A stretch of DNA of 34,937 bases from a virus (Duplodnaviria; Heunggongvirae; Uroviricota; Caudoviricetes): the IMG/VR virus record IMGVR_UViG_2571042690_000022. One strand, given 5' to 3'. This document shows, piece after piece, positions 812 to 34,937 of the stretch (position 1 is its first letter; each line of letters begins with the position of its first letter). The position numbers and the translations under genes were made by a program. The notes under the pieces are model-generated. The model was not told where the DNA came from and made no database searches. It worked only from the letters and a program-made list of their open reading frames with translations.

Positions 812-812
812 A

Positions 813-1019: not shown

Positions 1020-1239
1020 TCTGAATACCTCCCCATTCGATATGAATATTACGGGCAGCAATGACAGGGTCGTTATTCCACCATGCACCTGACATGTATT
1101 TTTCAACCTGTTCGCGTCCGGCAATAACACCAATTGTGATCCCCGGCCTGACGTTCTTAAAAAAGGCGCGGGCAAAAAGGTATCTGGCAGATATTCGGCA
1201 GGCTTTTAATTTCCGGCTTTTACCTGATAGCGTAATCAT
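1009..1239 (-). CDS. hypothetical early protein
   Basis: 76-aa ORF; start overlaps the stop of the upstream gene (coupled arrangement); no recognisable motif. Confidence 0.3.
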   Translation of the reverse strand: MITLSGKSRKLKACRISARYLFARAFFKNVRPGITIGVIAGREQVEKYMSGAWWNNDPVIAARNIHIEWGGIQNDY

Positions 1240-1919
1240 CTGGCCTCCAGTTTCTGTTGTTCCTGCCCACTGACCGGGCGGTGCAGTCTGACGTTCTGCC
1301 CTTCACGAAACCCCGCATAGCGCGAGGCGTCGCCATTGCGGCTTCTTCCCGGTTTACGCGCCCTGGTGGTTTGCGTCTGCGGGTATTTATGTTCCAGCCA
1401 CTGCTGCATCAGTTCACGCTCATCATCGGTCAGGGCAAAGGACTGTATTTCACTGATAACGGCCAGCACCCAGCCTTCGGCAAACTGGTCTCCACGGCTG
1501 GTGCGGGTGGCGGTTTTTATTCTTTTGTTCTGTGCACTGATATACTGCTGACGCGCCTTTTTCAGCTGACGGGCCAGCACTTCCCAGGTGTATGCAGCCA
1601 GTGCCGCACGTTCCCGGTTGCCGTAGAACCCCACAGACGGATGCGTGCCGGGGTGAATGATGGAGTTAACACCAAATACCTCGCGGATGATGTTCATCAG
1701 GCCCAGCATGTAGCGCGGTGGACGGAGACTGCCTGTCGGCCAGTAGTGACTGATGGTTTCATCAATATCACTCATAGCAATGTCGGAATGTGTGATGCCG
1801 TGAACATCCATCAGTTTACGGGCTCGGCGCAGTGCCAGAGCGGCCTCGTGCGGGTTGCCGGATGCGGCCAGCGCCAGCAACTTTTTCAGTTTCTCAATGT
1901 GTTTATTCTGGTCTGTCAT
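1236..1919 (-). CDS. DUF2786-like early protein
   Basis: Start chosen at ATG 1919 (MTDQNKHIEKLKKLLALAASGNPHEAALALRRARKLM, DUF2786-like N-terminus); ATGA overlap with stop of upstream gene at 1916; GGAG RBS about 10 nt upstream. Confidence 0.5.
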   Translation of the reverse strand: MTDQNKHIEKLKKLLALAASGNPHEAALALRRARKLMDVHGITHSDIAMSDIDETISHYWPTGSLRPPRYMLGLMNIIREVFGVNSIIHPGTHPSVGFYGNRERAALAAYTWEVLARQLKKARQQYISAQNKRIKTATRTSRGDQFAEGWVLAVISEIQSFALTDDERELMQQWLEHKYPQTQTTRARKPGRSRNGDASRYAGFREGQNVRLHRPVSGQEQQKLEAR

Positions 1920-2131
1920 TGTTCTGTATCTCCGGTATTTTTCTGCCGTTTCCATGCCCGGACAGCGTCGGACAGCTCTTTCAGGCTGTATGCTGCTTTA
2001 AGCTTTTCCCATAACCACTGTGTTGTTATGTGCATCAGCAGGGCAGCCAGGGCTGCCCCCGCACTGAGGCATGTCGCCAGGCCAGTAAGAATCAGTGTCC
2101 ATGCGGTGATTTCCCTGAGTATGTCAGCCAT
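1916..2131 (-). CDS. small single-pass membrane protein, hypothetical
   Basis: 71 aa with one hydrophobic helix (WTLILTGLATCLSAGAALAALLM); tightly packed in the early operon. Confidence 0.4.
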   Translation of the reverse strand: MADILREITAWTLILTGLATCLSAGAALAALLMHITTQWLWEKLKAAYSLKELSDAVRAWKRQKNTGDTEQ

Positions 2132-2145
2132 TGAATGCCTCCCGG

Positions 2146-2442
2146 TTACTCGTTCGTGTAAATCACGCCCAGTCGTGCAGCCAGACGTTCCAGTTTTTTC
2201 TGTTTGTGGAAGTCAATCAGCCGGTCCATCCCCTGAAGGCGCAGTTGCTCTGTCATGATTTCCACGTCTGCCAGCTCTGCCGCGAGGTCACTTTCGCTGC
2301 CCTGTCCGTTCAGGTTGCGGGCGGCACTGGCCGCCAGTTCAGCGGCCTCTTCTGCCAGTTTCAGGGCCTGTGCGTCCGGCCCGAAACGCTGCAGGGCCAG
2401 ACGGTAGAGGGCGGTGCGGGTGAGTTCGGTGTTTCGTGTCAT
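2146..2442 (-). CDS. MazG-like nucleoside triphosphate pyrophosphohydrolase (all-alpha NTP-PPase)
   Basis: 98 aa; KLAEEAAELAASAA followed by LAAELADVEIMTEQL matches the paired EExxE and ExxD metal-binding helices of small MazG/HisE-like proteins (from memory). Confidence 0.55.
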   Translation of the reverse strand: MTRNTELTRTALYRLALQRFGPDAQALKLAEEAAELAASAARNLNGQGSESDLAAELADVEIMTEQLRLQGMDRLIDFHKQKKLERLAARLGVIYTNE

Positions 2443-2451
2443 GCCGCGCCC

Positions 2452-2724
2452 TCAGTGCTTCCGGCTGACGGTGATGTGCAGGCCGCCTTCTGCAGTGGTT
2501 TCCATCCGGTACGGCACCTCATGCTCTGCCGTGTGGGTGAGTGTGTTCATCAGTACCTGCAGGGCAGCCTCCTTTCCGTTGGTCGCCACAATGGCCTGTG
2601 TGGCCATGCTGATTAGCGCCGTCAGGACGTGCTTCACATCGGTGAGGTCGCGGCATTCACACTCGTTGACATAGTGTTCAACAAGGGTTCGGGTGCGCTG
2701 TCGTGCTTCCTGTGGGGTAATCAT
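2452..2724 (-). CDS. hypothetical early protein
   Basis: 90-aa ORF in operon context; no recognisable motif. Confidence 0.4.
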   Translation of the reverse strand: MITPQEARQRTRTLVEHYVNECECRDLTDVKHVLTALISMATQAIVATNGKEAALQVLMNTLTHTAEHEVPYRMETTAEGGLHITVSRKH

Positions 2725-2915
2725 TGCGAGTCCTCCCTGTCAGGGCGGGAGAATTCCATGACGGGCACGTCTGCCGAAAAATGCTGGCTGCAGTACGGGC
2801 AGACCAGGGTGACGCGTACCGCAGGGATGTGGTATTTACCGGACATCACGGCGATGGCGCTGTGAAAACGCAGGGCTGTTATATCCCTCTCGCACTGAAT
2901 ACATTTAAATATCAT
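2721..2915 (-). CDS. small zinc-ribbon protein (CxxC-N30-CxxC)
   Basis: 64 aa with CIQCERD and CPYCSQH pairs; first gene after the gam-downstream intergenic gap. Confidence 0.4.
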   Translation of the reverse strand: MIFKCIQCERDITALRFHSAIAVMSGKYHIPAVRVTLVCPYCSQHFSADVPVMEFSRPDREDSQ

Positions 2916-3012
2916 GATTTAATTCTCCTCTGTTTCCGGCGTGCAGAAGCCCGCGGCGCTGACGTCGGAATAAAAAAGAAAATGTTTTTATTAAATAATT
3001 AACGTGGTGTGT

Positions 3013-3543
3013 TTACTGCACATCCTGCTCAAAAGGAATTATTGAAAAATCCTCAATGTCGCTTTTAATGGAAATACCGGGAATATTTTTCACGGCCTCT
3101 TTTTCATTCAGGATAGCGTCTTTATTTATTTCCTCTTTTACACGAATAAAGCGCTCAAGCCCCAGACGTCTCAGTAATTCAATAACATTATCCGCCCCAC
3201 GGATACTGACTGATGGCGGACGGTTTCGCCACTGCACCTCGCCGGTGGTGAGGTTAGCGAACTTCACCTTCCCGTTGCCGGTCAGTTCATCACGGTGTGC
3301 CTCACACCATGTCTGAATACCGGACTGCAGTTCGGCCATGCGTTTTTTCAGGCTCTCGGTGAGCGGGGCATAACGTGCGGTGATATCGCCAATGGCGTCA
3401 TTCATTTCTGTTTCAGCCCTGACCAGTTCACGTTGTGCGTCACCGAGTAGTCTGATTCCCTCAATGACCTCTTCACGTGTCCCCGGCACCCAGAGTGCTG
3501 CTGCGGCCTTGATACGTTTTGCACCTTTTGTACTTTTTGCCAT
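3013..3543 (-). CDS. gam: Gam host-nuclease inhibitor (Mu Gam-like)
   Basis: 176 aa; stretches such as WRNRPPSVSIRGADNVIELLRRLGLERFIRVKEEINKDAIL and IEDFSIIPFEQ closely resemble Mu Gam as recalled. Confidence 0.85.
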   Translation of the reverse strand: MAKSTKGAKRIKAAAALWVPGTREEVIEGIRLLGDAQRELVRAETEMNDAIGDITARYAPLTESLKKRMAELQSGIQTWCEAHRDELTGNGKVKFANLTTGEVQWRNRPPSVSIRGADNVIELLRRLGLERFIRVKEEINKDAILNEKEAVKNIPGISIKSDIEDFSIIPFEQDVQ

Positions 3544-3570
3544 TTTTTATGATTTCTCCAGTTGTGCTGA

Positions 3571-3840
3571 TTACCACAAAGATTCCGGCCACACGACGCG
3601 ACAGCCGTGCAGTTCGAAAACGCCCTGACGGAAATATCCCCTGTGGTCATGTCCGGTATACAGATAACAGGCCTTTCCCTGCTCAAGCATGCGCATGCAA
3701 TGCGCACTCCGGGAAACGCGGATGACAGGTTTGTTACCCCTGATGGTGATGCTTTGTACATCCGTGTTCGTCGCCTTAAGCGCCATAATGGCTGACTGCA
3801 CTTTGCTGATTTGCTGGTTGATACCTGTGGTGGATTTCAT
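3571..3840 (-). CDS. hypothetical early protein between B and gam
   Basis: 89-aa ORF starting 2 nt after the B stop, with AAGGGG RBS inside the B 3' end; the overlapping 3402-3761 ORF is rejected. Confidence 0.5.
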   Translation of the reverse strand: MKSTTGINQQISKVQSAIMALKATNTDVQSITIRGNKPVIRVSRSAHCMRMLEQGKACYLYTGHDHRGYFRQGVFELHGCRVVWPESLW

Positions 3841-3842
3841 TA

Positions 3843-5009
3843 TTAAACCCCTTTGACAACGTCAGCGTTGACCTGTGGAACCCCGATTTCAGCGGCCAGA
3901 TTCATGGCGGCTATTACCAGGTTACTGACGGCCAGCGGATACAGCAGGCTGACCATATTTTTACGGTGACTTCCCGGATTGCTCAGGCGGGCACGTATGG
4001 CATCCACTGCACCGGCGTCCATAATGTCCGTCAGCTGTTTACCGGCCCGTTGCAGTTTGAACGTCAGAAATTCTTCAAGGTTATTGTCCAGAGGCAGAAG
4101 TTCGACCACCTCACAGCGCTGAACGACTTCACGGACTTCCATATTGCGTTCAGACAGTTTTGTCGCCAGTTCCGGCTGGCCAATCAGCACGATGGACAGC
4201 AGTTTTTTGAAACCGGACTCCAGCTCAAAAAAGCGTTTGAGGTGTTTCAGTGTCGGAATGGGCAGACTGTGGGCCTCCTCAATCACCAGAACGTGGCTGA
4301 ACCCCGCCTGGCTGCTGTCTTTCAGGACGCGATGCAACTGGCGAAAACGGGCGTCCTGACTGCGTCTGATGCTTTCCAGTGGTGCGATGGTACTGATAAT
4401 GGCTTCGGCAATAGCTGCTGCCTTCAGGGTTTTCCCTTTCACATCGTTGTCTTCCATAGCGATGATGTATGGCTCGATAACAATTACCGGCGCATTCTCG
4501 CGGTTGATACGTTCAGTCAGGTCGCGGCGCAGCGTGGATTTACCCGCACCGGACTCACCGATGACGGCCATAAACCCACCATGACGGGCTGTCTGGTACA
4601 GCGCCTCACGCACGTAGCGAATGTCCGGGGTGGTGAACACATCATCAGAACCCTGCATGGCTTCGTCGGCGAACGGGTCACGGAAAAGACCAAACGCTTT
4701 TTTGGTTGCTGGAAATAACACCTGTTTTTTGAGTAACATATTCTCTTCCTCACTGAGGCTCGTTTTATCTGTGGTACCCGCTGTACGGGGCGTGGCCGCG
4801 CCCTGTACAGCATCAAAACTCTTCGTTGTATCAATCCCCTGACTTTCCAGCCAGGACGCAAGACGCCGGCGCACTTCTCCGGGGCTGGTGCGGGGCCACG
4901 CGTTATGATTCACAATCTGGGCCAGCGTGGCCTCAGAAACATCGACAGCTCTCGCCACCACCGCCTGTGGAATACGGGCCTCTTTCAGTTGCTGCTTCAG
5001 TACCAGCAT
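3843..5009 (-). CDS. transposition ATPase (Mu B-like/TniB-like AAA+ protein)
   Basis: Walker A GESGAGKST, Walker B-like HVLVIEEAH, N-terminal HTH-like segment; start set to ATG 5009 (MLVLKQQ) with GAGGAGGG RBS; directly downstream of the transposase. Confidence 0.8.
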   Translation of the reverse strand: MLVLKQQLKEARIPQAVVARAVDVSEATLAQIVNHNAWPRTSPGEVRRRLASWLESQGIDTTKSFDAVQGAATPRTAGTTDKTSLSEEENMLLKKQVLFPATKKAFGLFRDPFADEAMQGSDDVFTTPDIRYVREALYQTARHGGFMAVIGESGAGKSTLRRDLTERINRENAPVIVIEPYIIAMEDNDVKGKTLKAAAIAEAIISTIAPLESIRRSQDARFRQLHRVLKDSSQAGFSHVLVIEEAHSLPIPTLKHLKRFFELESGFKKLLSIVLIGQPELATKLSERNMEVREVVQRCEVVELLPLDNNLEEFLTFKLQRAGKQLTDIMDAGAVDAIRARLSNPGSHRKNMVSLLYPLAVSNLVIAAMNLAAEIGVPQVNADVVKGV

Positions 5010-5019
5010 GTTTCCCTCC

Positions 5020-6789
5020 TCAGTTGCCGTTAACAATGCTGATAACACTGCTGCGGGCCGGTGTGGTCAGCGTGGCCATGACTTCATCCAGTGCGGCTTC
5101 CGGTACGCCGTCCGGGTACTGTGCCGTTAACTGGCGGTAATGTTCCGGCGTCCAGGTAAGGCCGTCGGCGCTGAACTTATCGCGCAGGGCTTTCGCGGCC
5201 TCCACATGAGTCATGGGACGTTGTTCAGTGCGCGGCCCGCGTACGTCAGAGGCCTGACCACGCTTCGGCATATAGGCCGGAAGTGTGGTGTCGTCGATAT
5301 GTTTATACGGGTCAAGCCGCCCGCCGAACGGCAGCGCCTTCGCCTTGCGTGCGGCGGCTGCATCTGCGGCGTTGTCTGTACCGGTAACCAGCGCTTCGGT
5401 TTCTTTTGCCGCCATCTGTGCCGGGGTTTCCGGCAGGGCTTTGTAACTTTCGCCAAATACCGCCGCGCCTTCAGCAAAGCCAAACTCGTTCTTTCTGACC
5501 TCTTCGACCAGGAAGAACGTCTCGTGGCCGTCCTCACCGGTCAGAACCACCTGTGCCACATCGCTGCGCCATGGGTTACGGGTAATCATCAGTTTTTCAC
5601 CAACCAGTACGCCCGGTACCGTTGATACGTCAAATTCAGTGCCCCGGAACGAGACACGAAGTTTTGGCGTGACTTTGCGGAGTTCTGGTGCCGCCACAGC
5701 CAGTTCACGACATACCTCAACGGAAGGCGCTTTTTTCAGCTGCTCAGCAGTAATCTTCAGCCAGATATCCGTGCGGGTTTTACCGTGGCGGCTGTGAACA
5801 GCCGTGGCGTTAAAGTGGCTGCGCCATTTCGCGGCCAGCGCGTTGAGTTCTTCCAGACTGTGAACCGGCCGGAACTTCAGACCCGGCTCCAGCTTGCGTT
5901 CGATAATGTCACGCGCCTTTTCCACCTGTCCGGTGGCGCGGGCGTTATGCGGCTTGTGCGCTATCAGGTCGATGCCCAGTGAGCGGCACATGTTTTTCGT
6001 CATACCCGCGGTGTTTGCCGAGCCGGGGTCGAGATAGAGTATTTTCGGCACGCCGTGCAGCACGTCTGCGCCGCCACGCTCCTGCATGGCGTTGATAAGC
6101 ACAGAACACAGGTTCTCACCTGATTCCGCGCCCGTCACATACTCAACGTAAATCCAGCCGCTGGCATGGTCGGTAATCTCGTAACTCCACACGCGGTCAC
6201 TGGCGATACGGGCAAGGTTAGCGGGCTTGTTCTTGTAGAACTTCGCGCTGTCCATCACCTGCAGCCCTTTATGTCCATTGCTCAGGTAGTAAAGCGTGCA
6301 GAGTGAGGCGTCAATCTGCCAGACATGATTGGGATGCAGACTGGCCACTTCGGTATGTGGTGCAGGGGCATCCAGTTGTTCCGGGTGCAGGCCATAGTTA
6401 CGCAGAGCACGGCTGATGGCATCTTCAGACAACGGGAAAAACTCACTGGTGGTTTCATCTGTTCTGCCTGCGGTGATAAAGCCGTTAGCCCGCAGGGTTT
6501 CCACTGCATCTGCGATGGAATAGAGACGCTTACCGTTCTTGCGGGTGGCCTCACGCAGTGTGGCAGATATCAGCGCGGCTTCGTCGCGGGTCAGGGCGCT
6601 GCGCCCGGCATCGGCGCGTTTTTTGCGTTTATCAGTCACAGATACCTCCTTCAGCCTGCGCAGCAGAGTGGCGCGGGACATGCCAAGTTCAGCACAGGCA
6701 GCGTCGTATATTGCACCGCGTTTACCATGCCCCGCGTCACGTGCCGCGCGGGCTGTTTCAACCAGTTTTTCAGTCAGTGCCGGGGTCAT
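5020..6789 (-). CDS. DDE transposase (Mu A-like)
   Basis: 589 aa; candidate DDE residues in WQIDAS, YLDPGS and GQVEKA; gene order ner-like, A, B as in transposable phages. Confidence 0.9.
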   Translation of the reverse strand: MTPALTEKLVETARAARDAGHGKRGAIYDAACAELGMSRATLLRRLKEVSVTDKRKKRADAGRSALTRDEAALISATLREATRKNGKRLYSIADAVETLRANGFITAGRTDETTSEFFPLSEDAISRALRNYGLHPEQLDAPAPHTEVASLHPNHVWQIDASLCTLYYLSNGHKGLQVMDSAKFYKNKPANLARIASDRVWSYEITDHASGWIYVEYVTGAESGENLCSVLINAMQERGGADVLHGVPKILYLDPGSANTAGMTKNMCRSLGIDLIAHKPHNARATGQVEKARDIIERKLEPGLKFRPVHSLEELNALAAKWRSHFNATAVHSRHGKTRTDIWLKITAEQLKKAPSVEVCRELAVAAPELRKVTPKLRVSFRGTEFDVSTVPGVLVGEKLMITRNPWRSDVAQVVLTGEDGHETFFLVEEVRKNEFGFAEGAAVFGESYKALPETPAQMAAKETEALVTGTDNAADAAAARKAKALPFGGRLDPYKHIDDTTLPAYMPKRGQASDVRGPRTEQRPMTHVEAAKALRDKFSADGLTWTPEHYRQLTAQYPDGVPEAALDEVMATLTTPARSSVISIVNGN

Positions 6790-6804
6790 AGCTTGTCTTC
6801 CCTG

Positions 6805-7122
6805 TTATCCGATTCTGGCGGCAATTTTTCTGGCGAGGTCGCACAGTGTTTCGCCATCGCAGGTTTTCACCACGGTATTTACCGGTTGCGGTGCAACTAC
6901 CGGGCGTAATGCTGACTGATTCTGCAGACGTCTTATCTGCTGCATCAGCATCACCTCCATCGTCAGTACAAACGGGTGCGTCTCCTGTGCGGGTACGCAG
7001 ATTTCACCGGAAGGGGTCACCACGCGGAAACCCTGCACCATCTCCGGCAGCAGATTACACAGTGCGTGCCCCAGTGCCTCCGGGCTGTCCATCAGGGTAT
7101 TTTGTGTGTTATTCGTATTCAT
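6805..7122 (-). CDS. hypothetical early protein
   Basis: 105-aa ORF between the upstream early gene and the transposase; no motif recognised. Confidence 0.4.
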   Translation of the reverse strand: MNTNNTQNTLMDSPEALGHALCNLLPEMVQGFRVVTPSGEICVPAQETHPFVLTMEVMLMQQIRRLQNQSALRPVVAPQPVNTVVKTCDGETLCDLARKIAARIG

Positions 7123-8042
7123 TACTGCATATCCTCCGGTCGGTTGATTTCAGGTTCCGGTTCGGTCAGCCAGGCGGGGGCATCGTTACCCGATGGAGCG
7201 GCCTCAAGGTCAAACGTCTCACGTAATGCATGAACACTGCGTTCAATCTGGCAGACCAGACCGGCCATGAAATCTCTGGGGGTATCGATCATGTTTTTGG
7301 TGCAGTATTCACACAGGGTCTCAAAAACACTGGACAGCCGGACGGCGATAGCCGATTCGGCCTCAACCGCTAATGCCGTCACTTCCGCCCGCAATTTTTT
7401 CAGTTCTTCGTCTGGCGGCGGAGGTTGCAGGCGCGATTTCTTCTCCAGTTTTGTGGCCAGTTCGTTGATTTTTTCGTCCTTTCCGGCAAGCACCTGTTGC
7501 TGAGCTGCGTTGGTTTCGCGCGCTTCACGCAGGGCGGCCTTCAGTTCGCGGCTGGTCATGCGATCAATATCATCAAGCGTTGCACCGGCGACGGTTCCAC
7601 CATCAGCTAATGCGTCGAGTTCTTCGTCATCCAGAACCATCAGTTCATATAACTTGGTTTTTCCCAAAACGCTCAGCGCTGAGCGTTTTGGCTGTTCATC
7701 TCCATTGCCGAGAAATTTCACGCTGGCCTGCATCATGCGACGAGCTACCTGTGGTGCTAATCCGAGGTCGTTTTCCAGAATATTTGTGAAATCACCATGC
7801 GGTTCATTTTCTTTTAAGATGATCAGCCGCTTACCCGCTTCCAACATAGATTCAGCACTCTGCGCCATATAAAAACGTGCTTCGTGAACGATGCGTTCAC
7901 GTTCATAAGGCAGTCCATCACCAAACTGCTGCATGATCTCCATGCGATGCTGTGTCATGGCATTCAGGCTGACGTTGAGATCATCCGACAGCGGTACATC
8001 GGCGTTCAGTTCAGTGTTAATCGGTGATTTGGTACGTCCCAT
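7122..8042 (-). CDS. hypothetical early protein (possibly DUF3102-like)
   Basis: 306-aa ORF with AAGGAG RBS about 8 nt upstream of ATG 8042; predicted coiled-coil middle region; family assignment is a recollection only. Confidence 0.45.
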   Translation of the reverse strand: MGRTKSPINTELNADVPLSDDLNVSLNAMTQHRMEIMQQFGDGLPYERERIVHEARFYMAQSAESMLEAGKRLIILKENEPHGDFTNILENDLGLAPQVARRMMQASVKFLGNGDEQPKRSALSVLGKTKLYELMVLDDEELDALADGGTVAGATLDDIDRMTSRELKAALREARETNAAQQQVLAGKDEKINELATKLEKKSRLQPPPPDEELKKLRAEVTALAVEAESAIAVRLSSVFETLCEYCTKNMIDTPRDFMAGLVCQIERSVHALRETFDLEAAPSGNDAPAWLTEPEPEINRPEDMQ

Positions 8043-8052
8043 TGATTACTCC

Positions 8053-8361
8053 TTACAAACGACTACCTGAAATGACACGTTGGTTAATTTCGTTAATACG
8101 ATCCTGTGCACGTGCCATCTCGTTACTGTGGGCCATGGCGATCTGCAGTAACTGGATGCCCGGTGCAAAACGTCCGTTCTCCAGTTTCAGAGCCAGCCCT
8201 TCTTCAATGAGGGTGTTGAGTGCCCGGTTGATGTTTGCCGGTGACTCGTGCAGTGCTGTCGCCAGTTCACCGTTAGAAATACCGTTCAGGGCATGACCGC
8301 GCAGCGCTTTGAGTACCCGGAGGATGCGACTGCCGGAGCTTGAAACATTCGTCTTACTCAT
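8053..8361 (-). CDS. winged-helix DNA-binding protein (IclR/MarR-like HTH)
   Basis: SRILRVLKAL...GISNGELATAL...NINRALNTLIEEGL resembles a wHTH N-terminal domain; start uncertain (8361 or 8367). Confidence 0.45.
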   Translation of the reverse strand: MSKTNVSSSGSRILRVLKALRGHALNGISNGELATALHESPANINRALNTLIEEGLALKLENGRFAPGIQLLQIAMAHSNEMARAQDRINEINQRVISGSRL

Positions 8362-8413
8362 CTGCATACCTCTTTTGCGATATGTGATAACCTTTTACAA
8401 AGACTCAAAATAT

Positions 8414-8602
8414 TTAGGCCGCCTGAGCTGTTGATTTCAGTCCCAACTTCACGGCGATTTCATGGGATTTACCGTAACGGGCTTTGGTCTGCCCGTTGAG
8501 AACGCGGTATACCTCATTGCGGTTGTAGCCGTTTTCTTCTGCCCAGCGGGTGAAAGTGATCCCGCGCTGGCGGAAGAGAGCTTTGACTTGTTCTGCAGTC
8601 AT
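8414..8602 (-). CDS. Ner-like DNA-binding protein (Cro-like early regulator)
   Basis: 62 aa; pattern resembles the Ner/Nlp family; first gene of the leftward operon, divergent from the repressor; AAGGAG RBS 7 nt upstream of ATG 8602. Confidence 0.6.
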   Translation of the reverse strand: MTAEQVKALFRQRGITFTRWAEENGYNRNEVYRVLNGQTKARYGKSHEIAVKLGLKSTAQAA

Positions 8603-8695
8603 CGTTGTCTCCTTTGTTGATGCAATGATGTTTGCCTTATATGTGTTAGATTATTGCTCATAATTATGAGCATATCAAGATAGAGATTCACTTTT
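8603..8695. promoter_or_regulatory. divergent early-promoter / repressor-promoter switch region
   Basis: 93-bp AT-rich gap between divergent ner-like and repressor genes; contains the 8655-8672 palindrome and a TATAAG-like -10 (rc of 8636-8641) suitably placed for the leftward operon. Confidence 0.5.
8655..8672. promoter_or_regulatory. candidate operator: 18-bp perfect palindrome TGCTCATAATTATGAGCA
   Basis: Perfect dyad read directly from the sequence; its right half TTATGAGCA recurs at 8694-8702 overlapping the repressor start codon. Confidence 0.5.
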
Positions 8696-9052
8696 ATGAG
8701 CAAAGATATAGGAGAGCGCGTTATTTCTGTGAGGAAGAAAGCAGGGTTGAACCAGAGAGAATTTGCAGCTCGTTTAGGTATTTCTAATGGTGGTATCAGT
8801 CAGATTGAAAATGGAAAGGCGATGCCTGGAGGGGAGTTTCTGTTAAAGATGCATCAAGAGTTTAATGTTGATGTAAATTGGTTGCTCACTGGAATGAGCA
8901 CAGATGGTATGACTAGAAACCAGAATCAAATTTCCCCAGAAAAACAAAAACTAATAGATACTTTTGACGACATGACACCAGACCAACAACGCTCATTTCT
9001 TGAGATTGGGCGATTCTATACTCAGCCAAAACCAGGAAAAATCGCAGGCTGA
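8696..9052 (+). CDS. XRE-family HTH repressor (lysogeny repressor candidate)
   Basis: 118 aa; N-terminal HTH (LNQREFAARLGISNGGISQIENGK); divergent from the early operon; gene is markedly AT-rich relative to its neighbours; weak or no SD. Confidence 0.75.
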   Translation: MSKDIGERVISVRKKAGLNQREFAARLGISNGGISQIENGKAMPGGEFLLKMHQEFNVDVNWLLTGMSTDGMTRNQNQISPEKQKLIDTFDDMTPDQQRSFLEIGRFYTQPKPGKIAG

Positions 9053-9137
9053 TACTGACCCGGACACAAAGGACAGGTGGTTGATCTGGATGCTTTCAGA
9101 AAACATCGCCAGTGACATAGTGGAAGTTGTTTGGTTT

Positions 9138-9170
9138 ACCGGAAAGCATTGTGCTTTCCGGTTTTGTTTC
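9138..9170 (+). terminator. rho-independent terminator-like hairpin
   Basis: Stem ACCGGAAAGCA (9138-9148), loop TTG, stem TGCTTTCCGGT (9152-9162), then TTTGTTTC; lies between the convergent repressor and dam 3' ends. Confidence 0.5.
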
Positions 9171-9933
9171 AGAAGTTGCAGATTAGCAGTTCACGGCGCG
9201 GCGTGGGTTTACCCGCCAGACTGTAGTTGATATTCACTGTCTGTATGTTCAGTCCAGTGAACACCTCGCGCATCTGCGGGATGTCGTTCACCGAAATTAT
9301 CATTTTTCCTCTGATGCACCGGGCCAGCTCTGCCAGCCGCGAGTAGTTCCCTTCAGGAAAATCCACACCATAGCCTTCCGTACCCAGGTACGGTGGGTCG
9401 CAGTAGAACAGCGTGTGCGGACGATCATAACGCTCAATGCACTGTTGCCAGTCCATGTGTTCTATGACTGTTCTGGAAAGCCGCAGGTGTGCCGCTGACA
9501 GTTCTTCTTCAATACGTAGCAGGTTGAAGCGTGGCGGGGATGTGGTGGAGGTACCGAAGCTGTGCTCTGCCACCTTGCCGCCAAACGCCTGCTTCTGAAG
9601 GTAGTAGAACCGTGCCGCACGCTGGATATCCGTCAGTGTTTCTTCCGGGGTGATCTGCAGCCATTTGTAGATCTGACGGCTGACCAGCGCCCATTTGAAC
9701 TGGCGGACAAATTCTTCCAGGTGATGCTTTACCACCCGGTACAGATTCACCAGTTCACCGTTGATATCATTGATGACTTCGATCTTGCCGGGTGTCTTAA
9801 GAAAATAGAGCGCTGCTGCCCCACAAAACGGCTCCACATAACATTCATGCGCCGGAAACAGCGGCAGAATGTGTTTTGCAAGGCGGCGTTTGCCACCAAT
9901 CCACGGCACGATGGGTAATGTCTGCATTTTCAT
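9169..9933 (-). CDS. dam: Dam-family DNA N6-adenine methyltransferase (orphan, no cognate endonuclease seen)
   Basis: WIGGK, YVEPFCGAAALYF, INDINGELVNLY and FYCDPPY match E. coli Dam motifs as recalled; start set at ATG 9933 (MKMQTLPIV) rather than the ORF-track start at 10023. Confidence 0.85.
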   Translation of the reverse strand: MKMQTLPIVPWIGGKRRLAKHILPLFPAHECYVEPFCGAAALYFLKTPGKIEVINDINGELVNLYRVVKHHLEEFVRQFKWALVSRQIYKWLQITPEETLTDIQRAARFYYLQKQAFGGKVAEHSFGTSTTSPPRFNLLRIEEELSAAHLRLSRTVIEHMDWQQCIERYDRPHTLFYCDPPYLGTEGYGVDFPEGNYSRLAELARCIRGKMIISVNDIPQMREVFTGLNIQTVNINYSLAGKPTPRRELLICNF

Positions 9934-10038
9934 AATCTGCAAGCCTTTTACAATTATTAAAAAATATGGCAGTCTGGTCAGGTCTCGCGAGACTGACTGA
10001 ACCTTGGTCGGCTCACAGCGCATTCCTGTGGGGCGATG

Positions 10039-10068
10039 ACCAGCCCGGCTTTCGGGTGCCGGGCTGGT
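10039..10068. other. strong hairpin (11-bp GC-rich stem, 8-nt loop) in the dam-upstream intergenic region
   Basis: ACCAGCCCGGC (10039-10049) pairs perfectly with GCCGGGCTGGT (10058-10068); followed on the plus strand by CGTTCTTTC. Confidence 0.4.
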
Positions 10069-10123
10069 CGTTCTTTCATGATGCGGCAGGGATGGCGGGA
10101 TTTCTGTTAATGTGGTTTAGGGA

Positions 10124-10339
10124 TTATCCGGGGCGATTTTCTGACCTTATCCGGTCCAGGGCATAAGTAATACCTTCTGCAAAAACAGAAGTATCAAACT
10201 GCTTTTGTATTCCCTGAAAATGAAAAGCGGCACGACAGACACTCAGTTCTCCGCGGTATAACCGGATAATATCTTCCAGAACATTGTTCACTGCTTCAGC
10301 ACGGCGCTGATGTTCTGTTAACGTTAATCGGGGATTCAT
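10124..10339 (-). CDS. hypothetical small protein (71 aa)
   Basis: ORF with strong AAGGAG RBS 7 nt upstream of ATG 10339; lies in an AT-rich patch; start codon overlaps head-to-head with the 10338 plus-strand ORF. Confidence 0.35.
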   Translation of the reverse strand: MNPRLTLTEHQRRAEAVNNVLEDIIRLYRGELSVCRAAFHFQGIQKQFDTSVFAEGITYALDRIRSENRPG

Positions 10340-10742
10340 GATGCACTCCTTAAATGATGATTTTTATGTACTCACCGGCAAAATATTCTGCCGATTACTG
10401 AACACGCATCCGGCACCTCAGGTTTTGATTTATTCTGGTTTTTTCGATATCCCGGACCAGGTTGATCACGACCAGAAAAAGTGCCGGTGTTTTATTGATA
10501 CGCTGATATGGCTTCGGGATAACAGCTATATTCGTTACTCTCAGTTGCTGGCTGTGGGAGCGGCTGATGTCGTCCTCACGGAAAAAACGCTCTGTCTGCT
10601 CAATGCCATGCCGACCTTTCTGCAGCCCCGGCCCGTACCATTTAAAGAGTCACTTCTGGATGCAGTAAAAACCGGTGAAAATGCAGTCATCGCTGAATGC
10701 GTATCCCGGATTATGCGTTACGTGTTTAATGAACGTAAGTGA
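10338..10742 (+). CDS. hypothetical protein (134 aa)
   Basis: Long ORF in AT-rich DNA where chance ORFs are rarer; GGGGA 4-8 nt upstream of tandem ATGs; fills the only gap lacking a minus-strand ORF; reality uncertain. Confidence 0.35.
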   Translation: MMHSLNDDFYVLTGKIFCRLLNTHPAPQVLIYSGFFDIPDQVDHDQKKCRCFIDTLIWLRDNSYIRYSQLLAVGAADVVLTEKTLCLLNAMPTFLQPRPVPFKESLLDAVKTGENAVIAECVSRIMRYVFNERK

Positions 10743-11446
10743 GGTTTATCCGCTGTCTGCATAATCCCGATAGCCAGTGCGAGGGGAAGTAATTCCGGGG
10801 AAACTCTTTCAAACAGCGATGCCCATTCTCCTCTCGCCATCACTCTGTCCAGCCCGCCCTCCAGTTGCATTTCAGCAATCTTCCTGATTTCCCGGAACAA
10901 CGCCGCTTTGATCTCTTCATGCTCAGCTTTATTTTCCGGTGTCAGAAGGTATTCGTCGAAGAACCGGGGAGGCTGGTTAATCGGGATGTGTTCCTGTTTG
11001 CCGTACTTCGGGGACGAACAACATTCTGTTGACTGACCAGTGAGTTTACGTAACTCCTTCATGAGCAGCTCCTGATCGTAAACTGTCATCAGTGCCGCAA
11101 TGGTGGCATGCAGTGCATCGGGCAGTATCCAGGGTTGCCGGCCCGTGGGGCATATAACATCCAGCAGCTCATTCGTCCGACAGATACGCTCCTCGCCGTA
11201 TGACAACAGGCCCTGTCCCGTGTATTCCTCCAGCCTGATCACTGTGCCAGCCCGTGGTTTCTGCCATGTGCTCAGATCATCCCCACTCATACGGCGCTCA
11301 CCGTCCACGTCTGCGGCGTCGACAATGACGCTGTTTCCGAATTCCTGTTTCACCACTTCCTCTATTCGCGCCAGTACGTAACTTTTACCGCTGCCCACAG
11401 GACCGGACACGGTGACAGTGATGACCGGATTCAGTGTCTGCGTCAT
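10718..11446 (-). CDS. P-loop NTPase/kinase-like protein of unknown function
   Basis: 242 aa; Walker A GPVGSGKS at residues 16-23, then hydrophobic strand plus acidic segment SVIVDAADVDGERR; GAGGAG RBS upstream of ATG 11446; divergent from the late lysis operon. Confidence 0.55.
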   Translation of the reverse strand: MTQTLNPVITVTVSGPVGSGKSYVLARIEEVVKQEFGNSVIVDAADVDGERRMSGDDLSTWQKPRAGTVIRLEEYTGQGLLSYGEERICRTNELLDVICPTGRQPWILPDALHATIAALMTVYDQELLMKELRKLTGQSTECCSSPKYGKQEHIPINQPPRFFDEYLLTPENKAEHEEIKAALFREIRKIAEMQLEGGLDRVMARGEWASLFERVSPELLPLALAIGIMQTADKPHLRSLNT

Positions 11447-11508
11447 ATCGTATTCTCCTCTGTGAATAATTCATCGTTTATCCTGCACATCCCGTATCCC
11501 CGGCTCTC

Positions 11509-11526
11509 TTAACGCGCTTTAAAATC
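11509..11526 (+). promoter_or_regulatory. late-promoter motif copy 1 (TTAACGCGCTTTAAAATC) upstream of lysis genes
   Basis: One of four copies of TTAA-N6-TTAAWATC, each in a late intergenic gap 32-56 nt before a start codon. Confidence 0.45.
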
Positions 11527-11576
11527 CTTCGCGCCCTGTATTTGTGATGCTGTCTCCACCAGATAAGGAGACACAC

Positions 11577-11927
11577 ATGAAAAACCTGAAAAAATTCATT
11601 CCCCCTGTTAAAAAACCTCGCCTCAGCGGCTGGCTGCTGACCTCAGTGCTGTTGCTGGGCACCATCGCTCTGGTCTCACCACAGCAGCTGCCTGTTGTGA
11701 TCTACAAGCTGGCACTCATCACGCTGGCAGCAGTGCTGGGTTACTGGCTTGACCGTTCGCTCTTCCCCAAAGCCCGTCCCGGTCAGTACCTGAAACATGA
11801 CGACAGGCTGATGGCTGAAGGGCGTTTCCCGGTACAGACCGGCCTTCACCTGGTGTTTTCTGCTGCGTTAATCCGCCGTGCACTGATTGTTGCAGCGGTC
11901 TGCCTGGCTGTTGCGATGGGGCTTTAA
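11577..11927 (+). CDS. holin-like membrane protein
   Basis: 116 aa from ATG 11577 with AAGGAG RBS 7 nt upstream; 2-3 predicted TM helices; immediately precedes the endolysin. Confidence 0.5.
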   Translation: MKNLKKFIPPVKKPRLSGWLLTSVLLLGTIALVSPQQLPVVIYKLALITLAAVLGYWLDRSLFPKARPGQYLKHDDRLMAEGRFPVQTGLHLVFSAALIRRALIVAAVCLAVAMGL

Positions 11928-11929
11928 TC

Positions 11930-12670
11930 ATGAACTGGCCGCAGATCACCTGGATTGTATGCATGTCCCTGAAACTGGCTTTCGAAGCCTTTCGGGTCTT
12001 CATCAGAACCGAACGCCTGTCAGTCCGCGCCGGGACCTTTCTGGTTCATATGGCATGGGTATTCTTTGTCGCAATGTTGCTCTGGTGTGGCGGCTTTTTC
12101 AGCCAGGCATGCGCAGCACAACCTCCGCAGGCTGCGCTGCAGTATCGCGATGATGTGATCCGTAATGCCCGGCTTGAATGGGGACTGTCTGCGCCGGTGG
12201 CCGATTTCGCCGCGCAACTGCATCAGGAAAGCGGCTGGCGACCTGATGCGATCTCGCCGGCTGGCGCTCAGGGACTGGCGCAGTTCATGCCTGCCACTGC
12301 CGACTGGATAAGCCAGTTGATACCGATGCTGAGCAGTCGTGAGCCGTTTAATCCGGCATGGGCTATCCGGGCGCTGGTCAGCTATGACCGCTGGCTGTGG
12401 CAGCGTGTCAGCGCCGCCAGTGACTGCGAGCGTATGGCCATGACACTGTCGGGCTATAACGGTGGTCTGGGCTGGGTACAACGGGACAGGCGGCTTGCAT
12501 CACAGAAAGGTCTGGACAGCACCCGCTGGTTCGGACATGTCGCCACGGTGAATGCCGGACGCAATGCGGCCAGCTGGCGGGAGAACCGCCATTATCCGCA
12601 GCGCATCCTGCGCGAACTGGCACCGCGATATCTCACATGGGGAGGCAGCAGTTGTGTGGCATCTGGTTAA
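11930..12670 (+). CDS. endolysin, lytic transglycosylase (SLT domain) with N-terminal hydrophobic segment
   Basis: QLHQESGWRPDAISPAGAQGLAQFMPAT contains the catalytic ES and GxxQ motifs of SLT lytic transglycosylases; N-terminus has hydrophobic stretches (signal or SAR-like). Confidence 0.75.
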   Translation: MNWPQITWIVCMSLKLAFEAFRVFIRTERLSVRAGTFLVHMAWVFFVAMLLWCGGFFSQACAAQPPQAALQYRDDVIRNARLEWGLSAPVADFAAQLHQESGWRPDAISPAGAQGLAQFMPATADWISQLIPMLSSREPFNPAWAIRALVSYDRWLWQRVSAASDCERMAMTLSGYNGGLGWVQRDRRLASQKGLDSTRWFGHVATVNAGRNAASWRENRHYPQRILRELAPRYLTWGGSSCVASG

Positions 12671-25455: not shown

Positions 25456-28407
25456 ATGTCGGGACAGTTTTCAGTCGGCGTTGTTATCGGCGGGATGATT
25501 GGCAGCACATTCCGTTCTGCAATGAGCGGTACCCGCCGTGCGCTTGATTCCCTGAGCGATACCTCACGCCGCCTGCAGGAACGTCAGAACGCTTTAACCC
25601 GTGCAACAGAACGTTATGGTCAACTGGGTTCTTCCCGGATGCAGCATCTCAACAGCGAGCTGCTGCGGGTAAGCCGCACCATGGAGCAAATTGAGCGCCA
25701 GCAGCGCCGTCTGTCAGCGGCATCCGCTACCAGTGATGCGCTGAAAGCTAACCGCATGGCGCTGTATGGTCAGGGGATTGAAGCGTATGGCATGGCACAG
25801 ACTGTTTATCATACGGTTTCCCCTGCCGTTCAGCAGTCCATGTCTTTTCAGGACAAAATGATTGATATGTCGATCACCGCAAAATATGACAATAAAACGC
25901 GGGATGCACTTGCCGGACAGATAAAAGGCTGGGCGCTTAAATACAATCAGTATCAGGATGAGCTGCAGGAGGCGATGGGTTCACTCATCAGCGACAATAT
26001 TGATAATGTGTCAGATATCGGTTTTCTGATGCCGGATATTGCCCGCGCGGCAACGGCAACACGCACGTCTGCTCAGGACTGGGCAAAAGTGGCCGCAGTC
26101 TGGCAAAACTCCCTGAAAGGCGCGGCCAGAGATTTTGGTGCCGTTCAGAATATTATGGCTTATGCCGGTGACCAGGGGTCATTTGAAATCCCGGATCAGG
26201 TCAAGTGGATGCAGTCCCTGGCCCCAATGATGGCGGGTATTGCCAGTGGAAAAGAGGCTGTTGCTGAAATCGGGGCCAGTCTCCAGATAGCAAAAATCGG
26301 TGCAGGTTCCACCGACGAAGCAGCCAATAATTTTAAAAACTTTCTTACCAAAATTTTTGCCCGCGATACTCAGAAACAGTTTGCTGATCTGGGTATTGAT
26401 TTGCAGGGATCTATTGCGAGTTATAAAGCTGCGGGGATCTCTCCGATTGAAGGGATGTTGAGTGTTATAGAACGTTACCTCAATGCCAAAAGCCCCGAAG
26501 CGCTGGCCGGCTTCAAATCAGCCATGAAAATAAAGAATGATACGGCAAGAGATGAGGCACTTCAGGCTCTGGCGAAAAACTTTGGTCTGGGCGATATGTT
26601 CGCGGATATGCAGGTCATGGCATTTATCCGCCCGATGCTGGCCAACATGGACAGATATCGAGAGATCCGTGCCGGTGCTCTCAGGGCTGCGGATAACGAT
26701 TTGCTTGCCAGTGCTTATGATCAGCGGCTGAAATCTCCCCTTGAAGCCACTAAAACACTTATGGTCAGCAGTCGCGATCTGGCAATTACGCTGGGCGATC
26801 AATTAGCTCCATCTTTTATTTCTCTGACTCAGGACTTGCTCCCACTCATTCAGGGGACAAAACACTGGGTGGCGACTCACCCGCAATTTGTCAGTGGGGC
26901 TTTTAAGCTCATCAGTGCGCTCCTTGCGATTAAGATAGCGACTGTTGGTCTCAAACTGGGGCTGAATCTCCTTATTTCCCCCTTTGTGAACGTCTGGAAA
27001 ACTGCTGTTTTACTCCGGACCAACTGGCATCGACTGACTACCGCACTCGGAGAAGGTGGCAAATTACGCTGGCTTGTCACTGGATTCAGCCGACTGACCA
27101 GCGGAGGACTGAAACTCAGCAAAGTTCTGGCGGGCAGCCTCGTTCGCGGTTTTATGAGCGCTGCACGTGCCGTTCTCTGGATTGGGCGAGCGCTGATGAT
27201 GAATCCCATCGGTCTCGTTATCACCGCTGTCGCGGCAGCAGCTTACCTTATCTACCGCAACTGGGGGGCAGTCAGTGGCTGGTTTAAACAGCGCTGGGCT
27301 GACATTCAGGAAGCCTTTAACGGCGGTATCGCGGGAACTGGTAAGCTGCTGATTAACTGGTCGCCGGCAGGCCTGCTCTATAAAGCCTTTGCGGCTGCGC
27401 TGAAATATTTCGGCGTTACTCTGCCGGCAAAGTTCACCGACTTCGGTGGCCATCTTATCGACGGTTTGATTAACGGTATCAAAAACAAATGGGGGTCGCT
27501 CAAATCCAGTGTAACCGGAATGGGTGACAGCATCAGTAGCTGGTTTAAACAATGCTGGGCTGACATTCAGGAAGCCTTTAACGGCGGTATCGCGGGAACT
27601 GGTAAGCTGCTGATTAACTGGTCGCCGGCAGGTCTGCTCTATAAAGCCTTTGCAGCTGCGCTGAAATATCTTGGTGTTGATCTGCCGGCAAAGTTTACCG
27701 ACTTCGGTGGCCATCTTGTCGATGGTCTGATTAACGGTATCAAAAACAAATGGGAGTCGCTCAAATCCAGTGTAACCGGAATGGGCGACAGCATCAGTGG
27801 CTGGTTCAGCGAAAAGCTGGGCATTCATTCGCCGAGCCGCGTGTTTATGGGCTTTGGTGACAATATCGCGCAGGGGGCCGCCATTGGCCTGCAGCGGACC
27901 ACTCCGCTTGCAGCTCTGGCCGGGCAGCGAATGGCCAGTGAACTGCTCCCCAGAATGCCCGTGAGCATTCAGGGGCCAGAAATACGGGATAACACTTCAG
28001 GTGTTCGCTTCAGTATGCCGTTGCCCGATATCAATGGGTTTATGTCGTCTGCTAAAAATGCGATCGGAGCCGTAATCAATAGTTTGTCTTCCATGCCCGC
28101 TATTCCGCTCTCCACCCGGGCATCGATTTTACCAGGGCAACGTCTGGCAAATGAGATGACACCGGATGTTCCCCGTATCCCCTCGCCTGAAATCCTGGCT
28201 GCCGGATATTCAGGCCGTGGTGCAGCTGCAACCGGCGGTGGAACGTCTGGTGGTATCCAGGTCAGCTTTAATCCTCAGTTTTTCCTCAATGGCAGGGAAA
28301 CCACAGCGCCTGCAGGACTGACTGGTGCCCTGAATATGAGTCTGCATGAGCTGGAAAAAATGCTGGAGCGTCTGCTGGCTCAGAAACAACGTAAGGAGTA
28401 CCGCTGA
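25456..28407 (+). CDS. tail tape measure protein
   Basis: 983 aa, largest gene; helical/Ala-rich composition; position after the chaperone pair; contains an internal 87-aa tandem duplication. Confidence 0.85.
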   Translation: MSGQFSVGVVIGGMIGSTFRSAMSGTRRALDSLSDTSRRLQERQNALTRATERYGQLGSSRMQHLNSELLRVSRTMEQIERQQRRLSAASATSDALKANRMALYGQGIEAYGMAQTVYHTVSPAVQQSMSFQDKMIDMSITAKYDNKTRDALAGQIKGWALKYNQYQDELQEAMGSLISDNIDNVSDIGFLMPDIARAATATRTSAQDWAKVAAVWQNSLKGAARDFGAVQNIMAYAGDQGSFEIPDQVKWMQSLAPMMAGIASGKEAVAEIGASLQIAKIGAGSTDEAANNFKNFLTKIFARDTQKQFADLGIDLQGSIASYKAAGISPIEGMLSVIERYLNAKSPEALAGFKSAMKIKNDTARDEALQALAKNFGLGDMFADMQVMAFIRPMLANMDRYREIRAGALRAADNDLLASAYDQRLKSPLEATKTLMVSSRDLAITLGDQLAPSFISLTQDLLPLIQGTKHWVATHPQFVSGAFKLISALLAIKIATVGLKLGLNLLISPFVNVWKTAVLLRTNWHRLTTALGEGGKLRWLVTGFSRLTSGGLKLSKVLAGSLVRGFMSAARAVLWIGRALMMNPIGLVITAVAAAAYLIYRNWGAVSGWFKQRWADIQEAFNGGIAGTGKLLINWSPAGLLYKAFAAALKYFGVTLPAKFTDFGGHLIDGLINGIKNKWGSLKSSVTGMGDSISSWFKQCWADIQEAFNGGIAGTGKLLINWSPAGLLYKAFAAALKYLGVDLPAKFTDFGGHLVDGLINGIKNKWESLKSSVTGMGDSISGWFSEKLGIHSPSRVFMGFGDNIAQGAAIGLQRTTPLAALAGQRMASELLPRMPVSIQGPEIRDNTSGVRFSMPLPDINGFMSSAKNAIGAVINSLSSMPAIPLSTRASILPGQRLANEMTPDVPRIPSPEILAAGYSGRGAAATGGGTSGGIQVSFNPQFFLNGRETTAPAGLTGALNMSLHELEKMLERLLAQKQRKEYR
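27273..27806 (+). repeat. near-perfect 261-bp in-frame tandem duplication inside the tape measure gene
   Basis: Unit beginning ...GCTGGTTTAAACA recurs with 261-nt offset (27301 vs 27562), a handful of mismatches; protein WFKQ(R/C)WADIQEAFNGGIAGTGKLLINWSPAGLLYKAFAAALKY... repeated. Confidence 0.85.
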
Positions 28408-33305: not shown

Positions 33306-33514
33306 TTATGGGAAACCTGAATGAAACAGAAAAGTGGGAAGAAAATATCTATCAACTGGAGACATCAGATCCGGTTCTGGGTGGTGCAGACGGGATATCA
33401 AATCGAGCCCCCCGGCAACTGGCAAACAGGACGAAATGGCTGAAGAAGAAAACGGAGGAAGCCGCACAGTCACTGGCTGAACACGTACGTTCCCGTAACC
33501 ACCCGGACGCGACA

Positions 33515-33960
33515 CTGACAGCTAAGGGGTTCACCCAACTGAGCAGTGCCACCAACAGCACCTCTGAAACGCTGGCCGCCACACCAAAAGCGGTCAAGGC
33601 TGCATACGACCTGGCAGCCGGCAAGGCGCCTGCCAGCCACACTCACCCGTGGAGTCAGATAACGGGAGTGCCTGCGGCTTCACTGACGGCAAAAGGCACC
33701 GTACAACTGAGCAGCGCCACGGACAGTCAATCAGAAACTGAGGCTGCCACGCCGAAGGCGGTCAAGGCTGCATACGACCTTGCAGCCGGCAAGGCGCCCG
33801 TCAGCCACACTCACCCGTGGAGTCAGATAACGGGAGTGCCTGCTGCCTCGCTGACGGCAAAAGGCACCGTACAATTGAGCAGTGCCATCAACAGCACGTC
33901 TGAAATACTGGCCGCCACACCGAAAGCGGTCAAGGCTGCATACGATCTGGCAAACGGAAA
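33515..33960 (+). repeat. three tandem in-frame 168-bp (56-aa) repeats inside the tail fiber gene (approximate span)
   Basis: CTGAC(A/G)GC units begin at 33515, 33683 and 33851; protein repeat LTAKGxxQLSSAxxSxSExxAATPKAVKAAYDLAxGK, a typical phage tail fibre repeat. Confidence 0.7.
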
Positions 33961-34159
33961 ACAACCGGCAGATGCCACGCTCACTGCTCTGGCAGGACTT
34001 GCCACTGCAGCAGATCGGTTGCCTTATTTTACCGGAGCAGACCGCGCAGAGCTGGCAACCCTTACAGCTATTGGTCGCGCTATTATCGCTAAGGGCAGTA
34101 TAAAAGATGTCCTCAATTACCTTGGTTTAGGAGAAGGCTCGGCGCTACCCGTTGGTGTG

Positions 34160-34421
34160 CCTGTTCCGTGGCCCACCGCCACACCGCCAGCAGGCTGGTT
34201 AAAGTGCGACGGGCGCGCCTTTACAAAAGAACAATATCCTGTTCTGGCCAGAGTCTACCCGACCCTCCGTCTTCCCGATTTACGCGGTGACCTGTTCCGT
34301 GGCCCACCGCCACACCGCCAGCAGGCTGGTTAAAGTGCGACGGGCGCGCCTTTACAAAAGAACAATATCCTGTTCTGGCCAGAGTCTACCCGACCCTCCG
34401 TCTTCCCGATTTACGCGGTGA
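34160..34421 (+). repeat. perfect 131-bp direct tandem duplication (2 copies) within the tail fiber gene
   Basis: Copy 1 at 34160-34290 and copy 2 at 34291-34421 are identical by eye; 131 is not a multiple of 3. Confidence 0.85.
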
Positions 34422-34769
34422 GTTTATCCGTGGATGGGACGACGGGCGCAAAGTTGATACAGGACGTAAGTTGCTGTCCGCACAAGGGGCAACGCTGTTA
34501 AGAACAGCAATGCTGGATTATTATAACCAGGACACTACGGGAACCTCGGGGATAGTCGGCATGGGATTCAACAATGAAGATTCCATTACAGACCTTCGTG
34601 AGGGCAGCTTTAAAATGCCGGACGGGACAACATTCAGCGATCCTGTCGTGGCAATGTCAGACAATGGTATGCAGGCTACTATTCTGACCTCTATCAGAAG
34701 CGGGTATGCGAAGGGTATCACTGTCAGACCCCGTAGCATTGCACTTAATTACATTGTGAGGGCAGTTTA

Positions 34770-34937
34770 ATGAGTAACACTGCAGTTCTGGATGAAAACG
34801 GTATCGCCACTGTAGCGGGCGATATCACTGTATATCACTATGACGAGGAAACCCGGGAATACACCTCATCCTCTGTGGAGTATCTCGCCCTTGGGGTGGG
34901 TACTCCGGCACATTCGTGCGCCGATGCACCGCCGGAG
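34770..34937 (+). CDS. tail fiber assembly protein (chaperone), 3' end truncated by window
   Basis: ATG at 34770 overlaps the tail fibre stop (TAATG); N-terminus resembles Tfa-type proteins; ORF runs off the window end. Confidence 0.55.
   Translation, partial: MSNTAVLDENGIATVAGDITVYHYDEETREYTSSSVEYLALGVGTPAHSCADAPPE

Follow-up and report, generated by a model that had tools for sequence, protein, structure and literature searches.

A tail fiber gene in a virus record (IMG/VR IMGVR_UViG_2571042690_000022) carries two tandem copies of a 131-bp unit, and the question that this locus raises is whether the second copy is a genuine mutation, an error of assembly, or one state of a reversible switch of the phage adhesin. 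We analyzed the whole 34,937-nucleotide stretch of that record, referred to below as the window. Tandem Repeats Finder (TRF) reported positions 34160 to 34421 as an array with a 131-bp period, 2.0 copies, 100% matches, and 0 indels, and a perfect direct repeat of this length is far beyond chance. The array measures exactly 262 bp and shares no flank bases (g at 34159 versus a at 34290, and g at 34422 versus c at 34291). The fiber open reading frame (ORF) begins with ATG at 33308, or alternatively with TTG at 33302. Since 131 is not a multiple of three, translation ends 42 nt into copy 2, at a premature TAA stop (34331 to 34333) preceded by 13 out-of-frame residues, DLFRGPPPHRQQAG. Another frame, open from 34291 until a stop at 34768 to 34770, encodes the remainder of the fiber protein. 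In the single-copy form, represented by Escherichia coli strain 81009, the gene is one uninterrupted ORF of 445 codons counted from TTG or 443 counted from ATG. Thus, an earlier note on this DNA had correctly described two identical 131-bp copies, which TRF and a repeat search placed at the same coordinates, as well as a frame broken at 34333, a conserved tip left in the other frame, and a gene of about 445 codons once one copy is removed. The coordinates of the features are collected in the table.

Table. Features of the tail fiber locus and the duplication, in window coordinates
Feature	Position	Strand	Remarks
Truncated tail fiber ORF	33308-34333	+	341 aa (343 from TTG 33302); three Phage_fiber_2 repeats, one Collar domain
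Three in-frame 168-bp (56-aa) Phage_fiber_2 repeats	33513-34016	+	Constant shaft part; normal for the gene
26-bp DNA-invertase crossover site, TCCTCAATTACCTTGGTTTAGGAGAA	34110-34135	+	Central TT at 34122-34123; identical to published EC958 Phi2_5prime
Left arm of imperfect inverted repeat	34119-34478	+	229 bp in single-copy genomes; longer here because of the duplication
Copy 1 of 131-bp unit	34160-34290	+	Residues ~285-328, nearly the whole Collar domain; TRF and repeat search
Novel junction	34290/34291		GGTGA / CCTGTT
Copy 2 of 131-bp unit	34291-34421	+	100% identical to copy 1
Out-of-frame fiber remainder	34291-34770	+	Second Collar copy and 113-aa receptor-binding tip
TCCGTGG, downstream partner	34427-34433	+	Pairs with 34165-34171 (repeated at 34296-34302)
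Tail fiber assembly (chaperone) gene, first 56 codons	34770-34937	+	Overlaps the fiber stop (TAATG); window ends in frame

The Collar domain corresponds to residues 283 to 330 of the intact fiber in single-copy relatives. The truncated product would keep the baseplate-binding N terminus, the shaft, and one Collar domain and would lose the 113-aa receptor-binding tip, so that fibers made from the duplicated allele (the Sv-dup allele, Sv being the currently expressed variable 3' part of the gene) should not adsorb and should be nonfunctional. Three ways around the lesion, or of classifying it, were rejected. A programmed ribosomal frameshift has no slippery site to act on: the codons at 34288 to 34333 (GGT GAC CTG TTC CGT GGC CCA CCG CCA CAC CGC CAG CAG GCT GGT TAA) contain no X XXY YYZ heptamer, and relatives have the gene as a single uninterrupted frame. 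Re-initiation would use TTG at 34471, the first usable start of the out-of-frame remainder, and would yield a 99-aa remnant that has no shaft for attachment. Finally, simple-sequence-repeat contingency loci have units of 1 to 9 bp, and the unit here is 131 bp long and present in two copies.

Several peculiarities of this gene family were observed. Our first homologue search was dominated by longer, repeat-rich fibers, and many other disrupted or repeat-number variants of the fiber gene exist. One variant of 434 aa, found in other genomes, starts in the +1 frame (MGRKYLSTGDIRSGSGWCRRDIKSS) and regains the normal frame near a C6 run, which indicates indel variation or sequencing error at the CCCCCC run around window position 33410. 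The intact 445-codon gene is split by PGAP into two or three "incomplete" pseudogene fragments (NZ_CP021179.1, locus L001, 2607 to 3740; NZ_CP020116.1, locus L002, 2607 to 3740). Additionally, NCBI and UniRef list several tail fiber proteins of the family under the name "short-chain fatty acid transporter," which appears to be a propagated annotation error.

The sequence identifies the window as Phi2, a BcepMu-like prophage of E. coli ST131 that Forde et al. 2014 described in strain EC958 (PMC4134206). Bases 1 to 34290 and 34422 to 34936 were 100% identical to E. coli strain 81009 (NZ_CP021179.1), so that across the 34,936 bases compared the extra 131 bp and the final base of the window were the only differences. 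The ST131 prophage lies between ycaL and aroA. The annotation of the identical region of 81009 includes Mor, Gam, a DDE transposase with its ATPase partner, and P2-like tail and baseplate genes, and at the fiber end it lists a tail fiber, a chaperone, two inverted fiber fragments, and a recombinase. A near-identical record, PQ738613.1 (PhiKM), is classified in Bcepmuvirus; the window shares with that genus the Mu-type DDE transposase and ATPase, Gam, Mor, and a P2-like tail module, together with near-identity to a classified member. The early region (window 1 to 12350, with Mor, GemA-like, Gam, ATPase, DDE transposase, and Ner-like genes) runs leftward, away from the late genes, and a repressor-like gene is located centrally in the element; this arrangement is that of BcepMu rather than of Mu. 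The first base of the window falls exactly at the Mor stop codon. The tape measure gene (~25456 to 28407) contains its own tandem repeat of 261 bp × 2.0 (27272 to 27806, 93% identity). The reference has this repeat as well, and its 87-codon unit keeps the reading frame.

The duplication lies in DNA that is known to invert. The crossover site in the fiber gene, on which a Gin/Cin-type DNA invertase acts, marks the boundary between the constant and invertible parts of the gene, and its sequence is that of the Phi2_5prime site given in Table 3 of Forde et al. 2014 (PMC4134206). In EC958, a 227-bp imperfect inverted repeat bounds a 2067-bp invertible segment of Phi2, inversion was seen in PacBio reads, and cultures contained mixed orientations of the segment; the same authors warned of artefactual duplications in these phage regions (PMC4134206). 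Projected from 81009, the arm that holds the duplication recurs in inverted form at the heads of two alternative C-terminal cassettes past the end of the window. The two inverted copies of the 229-bp arm in 81009 are 94% and 85% complementary, and the promoterless cassettes that they precede encode 142 aa (94% arm) and 153 aa (85% arm), each with a Collar domain. A 190-aa recombinase ORF with PF00239 (E value, 8e-51) and PF02796 (Resolvase plus HTH_7) follows the cassettes. Together with its part beyond the window (locus L001, 3740 to 5905), the system comprises a forward Collar cassette, two inverted ones, a single chaperone gene, and the Resolvase plus HTH_7 invertase. Since the window ends before the invertase and the alternative cassettes, the earlier note could not see them.

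Other genomes contain the segment in different arrangements. Among loci L004 to L013 are flipped and doubly inverted forms in which the constant part continues in frame into an alternative cassette to encode 415 aa, and public genomes contain at least three permutations of the segment, among them a double inversion (L007). Since several permutations occur, the fiber locus is, on comparison of these genomes, a three-site multiple-inversion system. Remnant ORFs of 99 aa and 86 aa, present on 185 and 44 contigs, were rejected as further disruptions of the gene, being mostly the normal result of the segment lying in flipped orientation. The duplication starts 37 bp downstream of the crossover dinucleotide, inside invertible DNA, and therefore damages only the allele that now follows the constant part. 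Inversion should exchange this broken allele for one of the two alternative intact tips, provided that the downstream cassettes and the invertase, both off the window here, are intact as they are in every close relative. The real host-range switch at this locus is the invertible three-cassette segment.

We searched for a second occurrence of the duplication with a 40-nt probe centered on the junction, which finds seeds only in records that contain the junction. The probe had no match in 5,426 complete E. coli genomes, of which 574 matched a control 40-mer from inside the unit at 100%. It likewise had no match in 50,697 phage records, IMG/VR, GTDB representative genomes, or JGI metagenome contigs. 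At the protein level, the truncated product, from either start codon, was absent from 153 billion gene positions and 15 billion proteins, and a junction-peptide search returned no protein with this junction, while the intact 443-aa protein was present on at least 1,000 contigs. Because the junction was found nowhere else, the event is either private and recent or not real; identity to 81009 at every other base of the 34,936 likewise makes the change recent. The comparison with related prophages that the earlier note had proposed therefore gave a single uninterrupted frame in the relatives and the two-copy junction in none of the sequences searched. Its first two suggestions, a recent inactivating duplication and an assembly artifact, both remain live explanations.

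The reading that we favor, with a probability of roughly 55%, is a genuine, very recent, and private 131-bp tandem duplication in the Sv allele of the ST131 Phi2 tail fiber gene. Most probably, a slipped strand or a rare template switch in replicating DNA produced it, with the imperfect repeat ..T..TCCGTGG, whose two occurrences lie 131 bp apart, as the guide for mispairing. In the single-copy gene, the TCCGTGG pair is spaced exactly 131 bp apart and provides a 7-nt in-register microhomology 5 to 6 nt from the breakpoints. A comparably long in-register run within 12 nt accompanied only 0.14 to 0.2% of random breakpoint pairs in this prophage, in a test that was designed after the sequence was seen. 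The microhomology favors a real event. The breakpoint adjoins the microhomology and does not lie inside it, which is atypical for simple slippage. Clean slippage at GGTG or at CCGTGG was rejected, since it predicts a 132-bp in-frame unit or a junction after GTTTAT, and the observed junction is GGTGA/CCTGTT. If the event is real, the duplication would represent neutral prophage decay in a lysogen rather than a regulatory device, and the extra copy could also be lost by ordinary RecA-independent deletion.

An assembly or finishing artifact is a serious possibility, though a less probable one. Here the source would contain a single copy, and the second would have been created by untrimmed joining, gap filling, or scaffolding of contig ends that overlap in a multicopy inverting repeat. 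The absence of the junction and its product from every other public sequence searched is what such an error would leave, as is the perfect identity of the copies. The location fits as well: the unit lies wholly inside the 229-bp inverted repeat, which holds a 140-bp exact repeat, and this multicopy repeat makes up only 0.7% of the window yet contains the duplication. Other assemblies fail at the same place. The short-read draft at L007 has ~95 N flanked by duplicated GAGTC at 34251 to 34255, and the fiber gene of PhiKM (PQ738613.1) ends at ~34254, inside the repeat. The mixed orientations in PacBio data and the published warning about artefactual duplications, cited above (PMC4134206), point the same way. 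The first base of the window falls on a gene boundary, its last base is odd and lies in frame within a gene, and its end, 516 bp past the duplication, appears to be a contig end. Thus, the window resembles a provirus excised from a draft contig whose end lay in the repeat region.

The last base deserves separate mention. Position 34937 is G (GAG), whereas all ST131 Phi2 references have A (GAA), a synonymous difference. G is the allele of a sister Phi2-like prophage that occupies pepN-ssuB in other strains and whose cassette differs from that of Phi2 at only three positions in ~800 bp, the third being base 34937. The combination of Phi2-type upstream bases with G at 34937 was found in no complete genome, and the final base points to a contig end induced by the repeat, a mixture of strains, or a junction left by recombination. 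The PhiKM deposit (locus L015, 1909 to 3166) is a permuted "partial genome" in which a short ORF annotated as "Fe2+ ABC transporter permease protein 2" comes directly after the fiber gene, with the left end of the prophage (Mor) next; this arrangement has the appearance of a join between a contig end and a contig start.

Against an artifact stand the details of the junction itself. A pure k-mer assembly needs junction k-mers, and no k-mer of 28 nt or more across the junction was present in any of the 5,426 complete E. coli genomes, so that a k-mer assembler would need real junction reads. The ends of the unit fit exact-repeat boundaries for no single k: a de Bruijn contig-overlap model based on the exact Sv/S'v2 repeat (34178 to 34317) was rejected because it requires k = 159 for the end at 34160 but k = 114 for the end at 34290. 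At the positions that tell the paralogous cassettes apart, each copy has the bases of Sv (C at 34177/34308 and T at 34254/34385), so that copy 2 is not a misplaced paralogous cassette, and the duplication is not a collapse or mixture of paralogs. Additionally, an arbitrary overlap join would not be expected to show an in-register microhomology of 7 nt, and the other 34.8 kb of the window are free of errors. The small lesions that other assemblies have in this stretch (described below), and the many other disrupted forms of the gene, also favor a real event. A genuine mutation remains our preferred reading.

A third account, in which the invertase triggered the event, is very unlikely. Aberrant cleavage at the upstream crossover site or at a quasi-site, followed by break repair, would have produced a local duplication, and the arm would be a hot spot of rearrangement. 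The duplication does lie close to the crossover dinucleotide (34122 to 34123), and other assemblies have several small duplications and deletions within this ~180-bp arm. However, the breakpoints have no common 2-bp core (left, TG and GA; right, CC and GT), which serine-recombinase exchange requires, and neither has a convincing quasi-site, so that unequal exchange by the serine invertase at the breakpoints was rejected. The apparent clustering of lesions is an ascertainment effect, since only this segment was used as the query.

The lesions in other assemblies were of different kinds. An independent 53-bp frameshifting deletion, found in two samples (GCA_022554035.1, locus L010, 3920 to 3924), corresponds to window 34206 to 34258 in the Collar-coding stretch and carries a 4-nt CGAC microhomology. 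The C-terminal tails of three proteins read as alternative-frame translations of upstream Collar DNA and would thereby imply, in Collar cassettes of other E. coli assemblies, tandem duplications of ~98 bp (34137 to 34234) in WP_425535731.1 and ~124 bp (34195 to 34318) in WP_143355757.1 and WP_250146257.1. A broader reading, in which the arm beside the crossover site is a hot spot for metastable out-of-frame tandem duplications of 98, 124, and 131 bp, is even less probable than triggering by the invertase. If true, individual fiber alleles would be silenced and would revert by repeat collapse, adding a second, stochastic layer over DNA inversion in setting the host range of the phage.

The least probable of all these readings is the third suggestion of the earlier note, a selected and reversible ON/OFF switch of the adhesin through gain and loss of a 131-bp copy, as in cap3A. 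Duplication-based phase variation exists elsewhere, and RecA-independent deletion of ~100-bp tandem repeats occurs at high frequency in E. coli (PMC8378479), which makes precise reversion mechanistically possible and the lesion, if real, metastable. However, the junction did not recur among at least 1,000 contigs with the intact gene or the 574 complete genomes that carry the segment. The locus already has dedicated switching by the invertase, and a prophage tail fiber is silent in the lysogen, so that selection would have no obvious reason to favor an OFF state. Without homology at the junction, such duplications would form only rarely, and switching would be essentially one-way. Any reversibility is therefore generic tandem-repeat instability and not evidence of a selected switch; with the junction a singleton among thousands of genomes of the same prophage, the suggestion is unsupported as a selected mechanism.

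The biological weight of the duplication is very small. At most, the prophage of a single ST131 isolate has decayed a little further, with the damage confined to one of the three exchangeable receptor-binding tips. The practical caution is of wider use: at the invertible fiber repeats of ST131 prophages, assemblies break and annotation pipelines fragment intact genes, and small duplications or deletions in such repeats should be checked against reads before they are interpreted.

Set beside known systems, the duplication resembles several of them in part. With false duplications at draft contig joins it shares perfect identity of the copies, singleton status, and a position in a repeat where other assemblies break, but its boundaries lie off the repeat edges and off any plausible k-mer overlap, and an in-register microhomology is present. 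The 101-bp tetA repeats of the Lovett laboratory assays, which revealed RecA-independent instability in E. coli (PMC8378479), are likewise perfect direct tandem repeats of ~100 to 130 bp and predict collapse to one copy by template switching; those were engineered plasmid repeats with measured rates, whereas the present repeat is chromosomal and known from sequence alone. In pneumococcal type 3 cap3A, many independent duplications with high-frequency reversion under selection have been described (Waite et al. 2001, as cited in PMC11163986). As in cap3A, an out-of-frame intragenic tandem duplication inactivates the gene, and loss of one copy would restore it. In contrast to cap3A, where duplications recur and revert, we found a single occurrence, with neither junction nor product in any searched collection despite strongly positive controls, in a gene that is silent in the lysogen and has a separate, dedicated switch.

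The closest relatives of the locus are the invertible segments of the Din family (Mu G/Gin, P1 C/Cin, e14 P/Pin, and p15B Min), of which the Phi2 segment is a member. A 26-bp site with the conserved central dinucleotide stands at its constant/variable boundary, and the segment is found in nature in both or all orientations (L004 to L013; PacBio data, PMC4134206). The window has DNA identical to that of ST131 Phi2, a 26-bp 5' crossover site identical to the published one, and the order of a constant Phage_fiber_2 part fused at the crossover to a variable Collar part and followed by the assembly gene. What sets it apart is an extra 131 bp inside the variable part, which breaks the currently expressed allele. 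Overall, the underlying ST131 Phi2 invertible tail fiber system is already described, and the duplication found within it is an ordinary private one-off lesion or an assembly error, not a switch.
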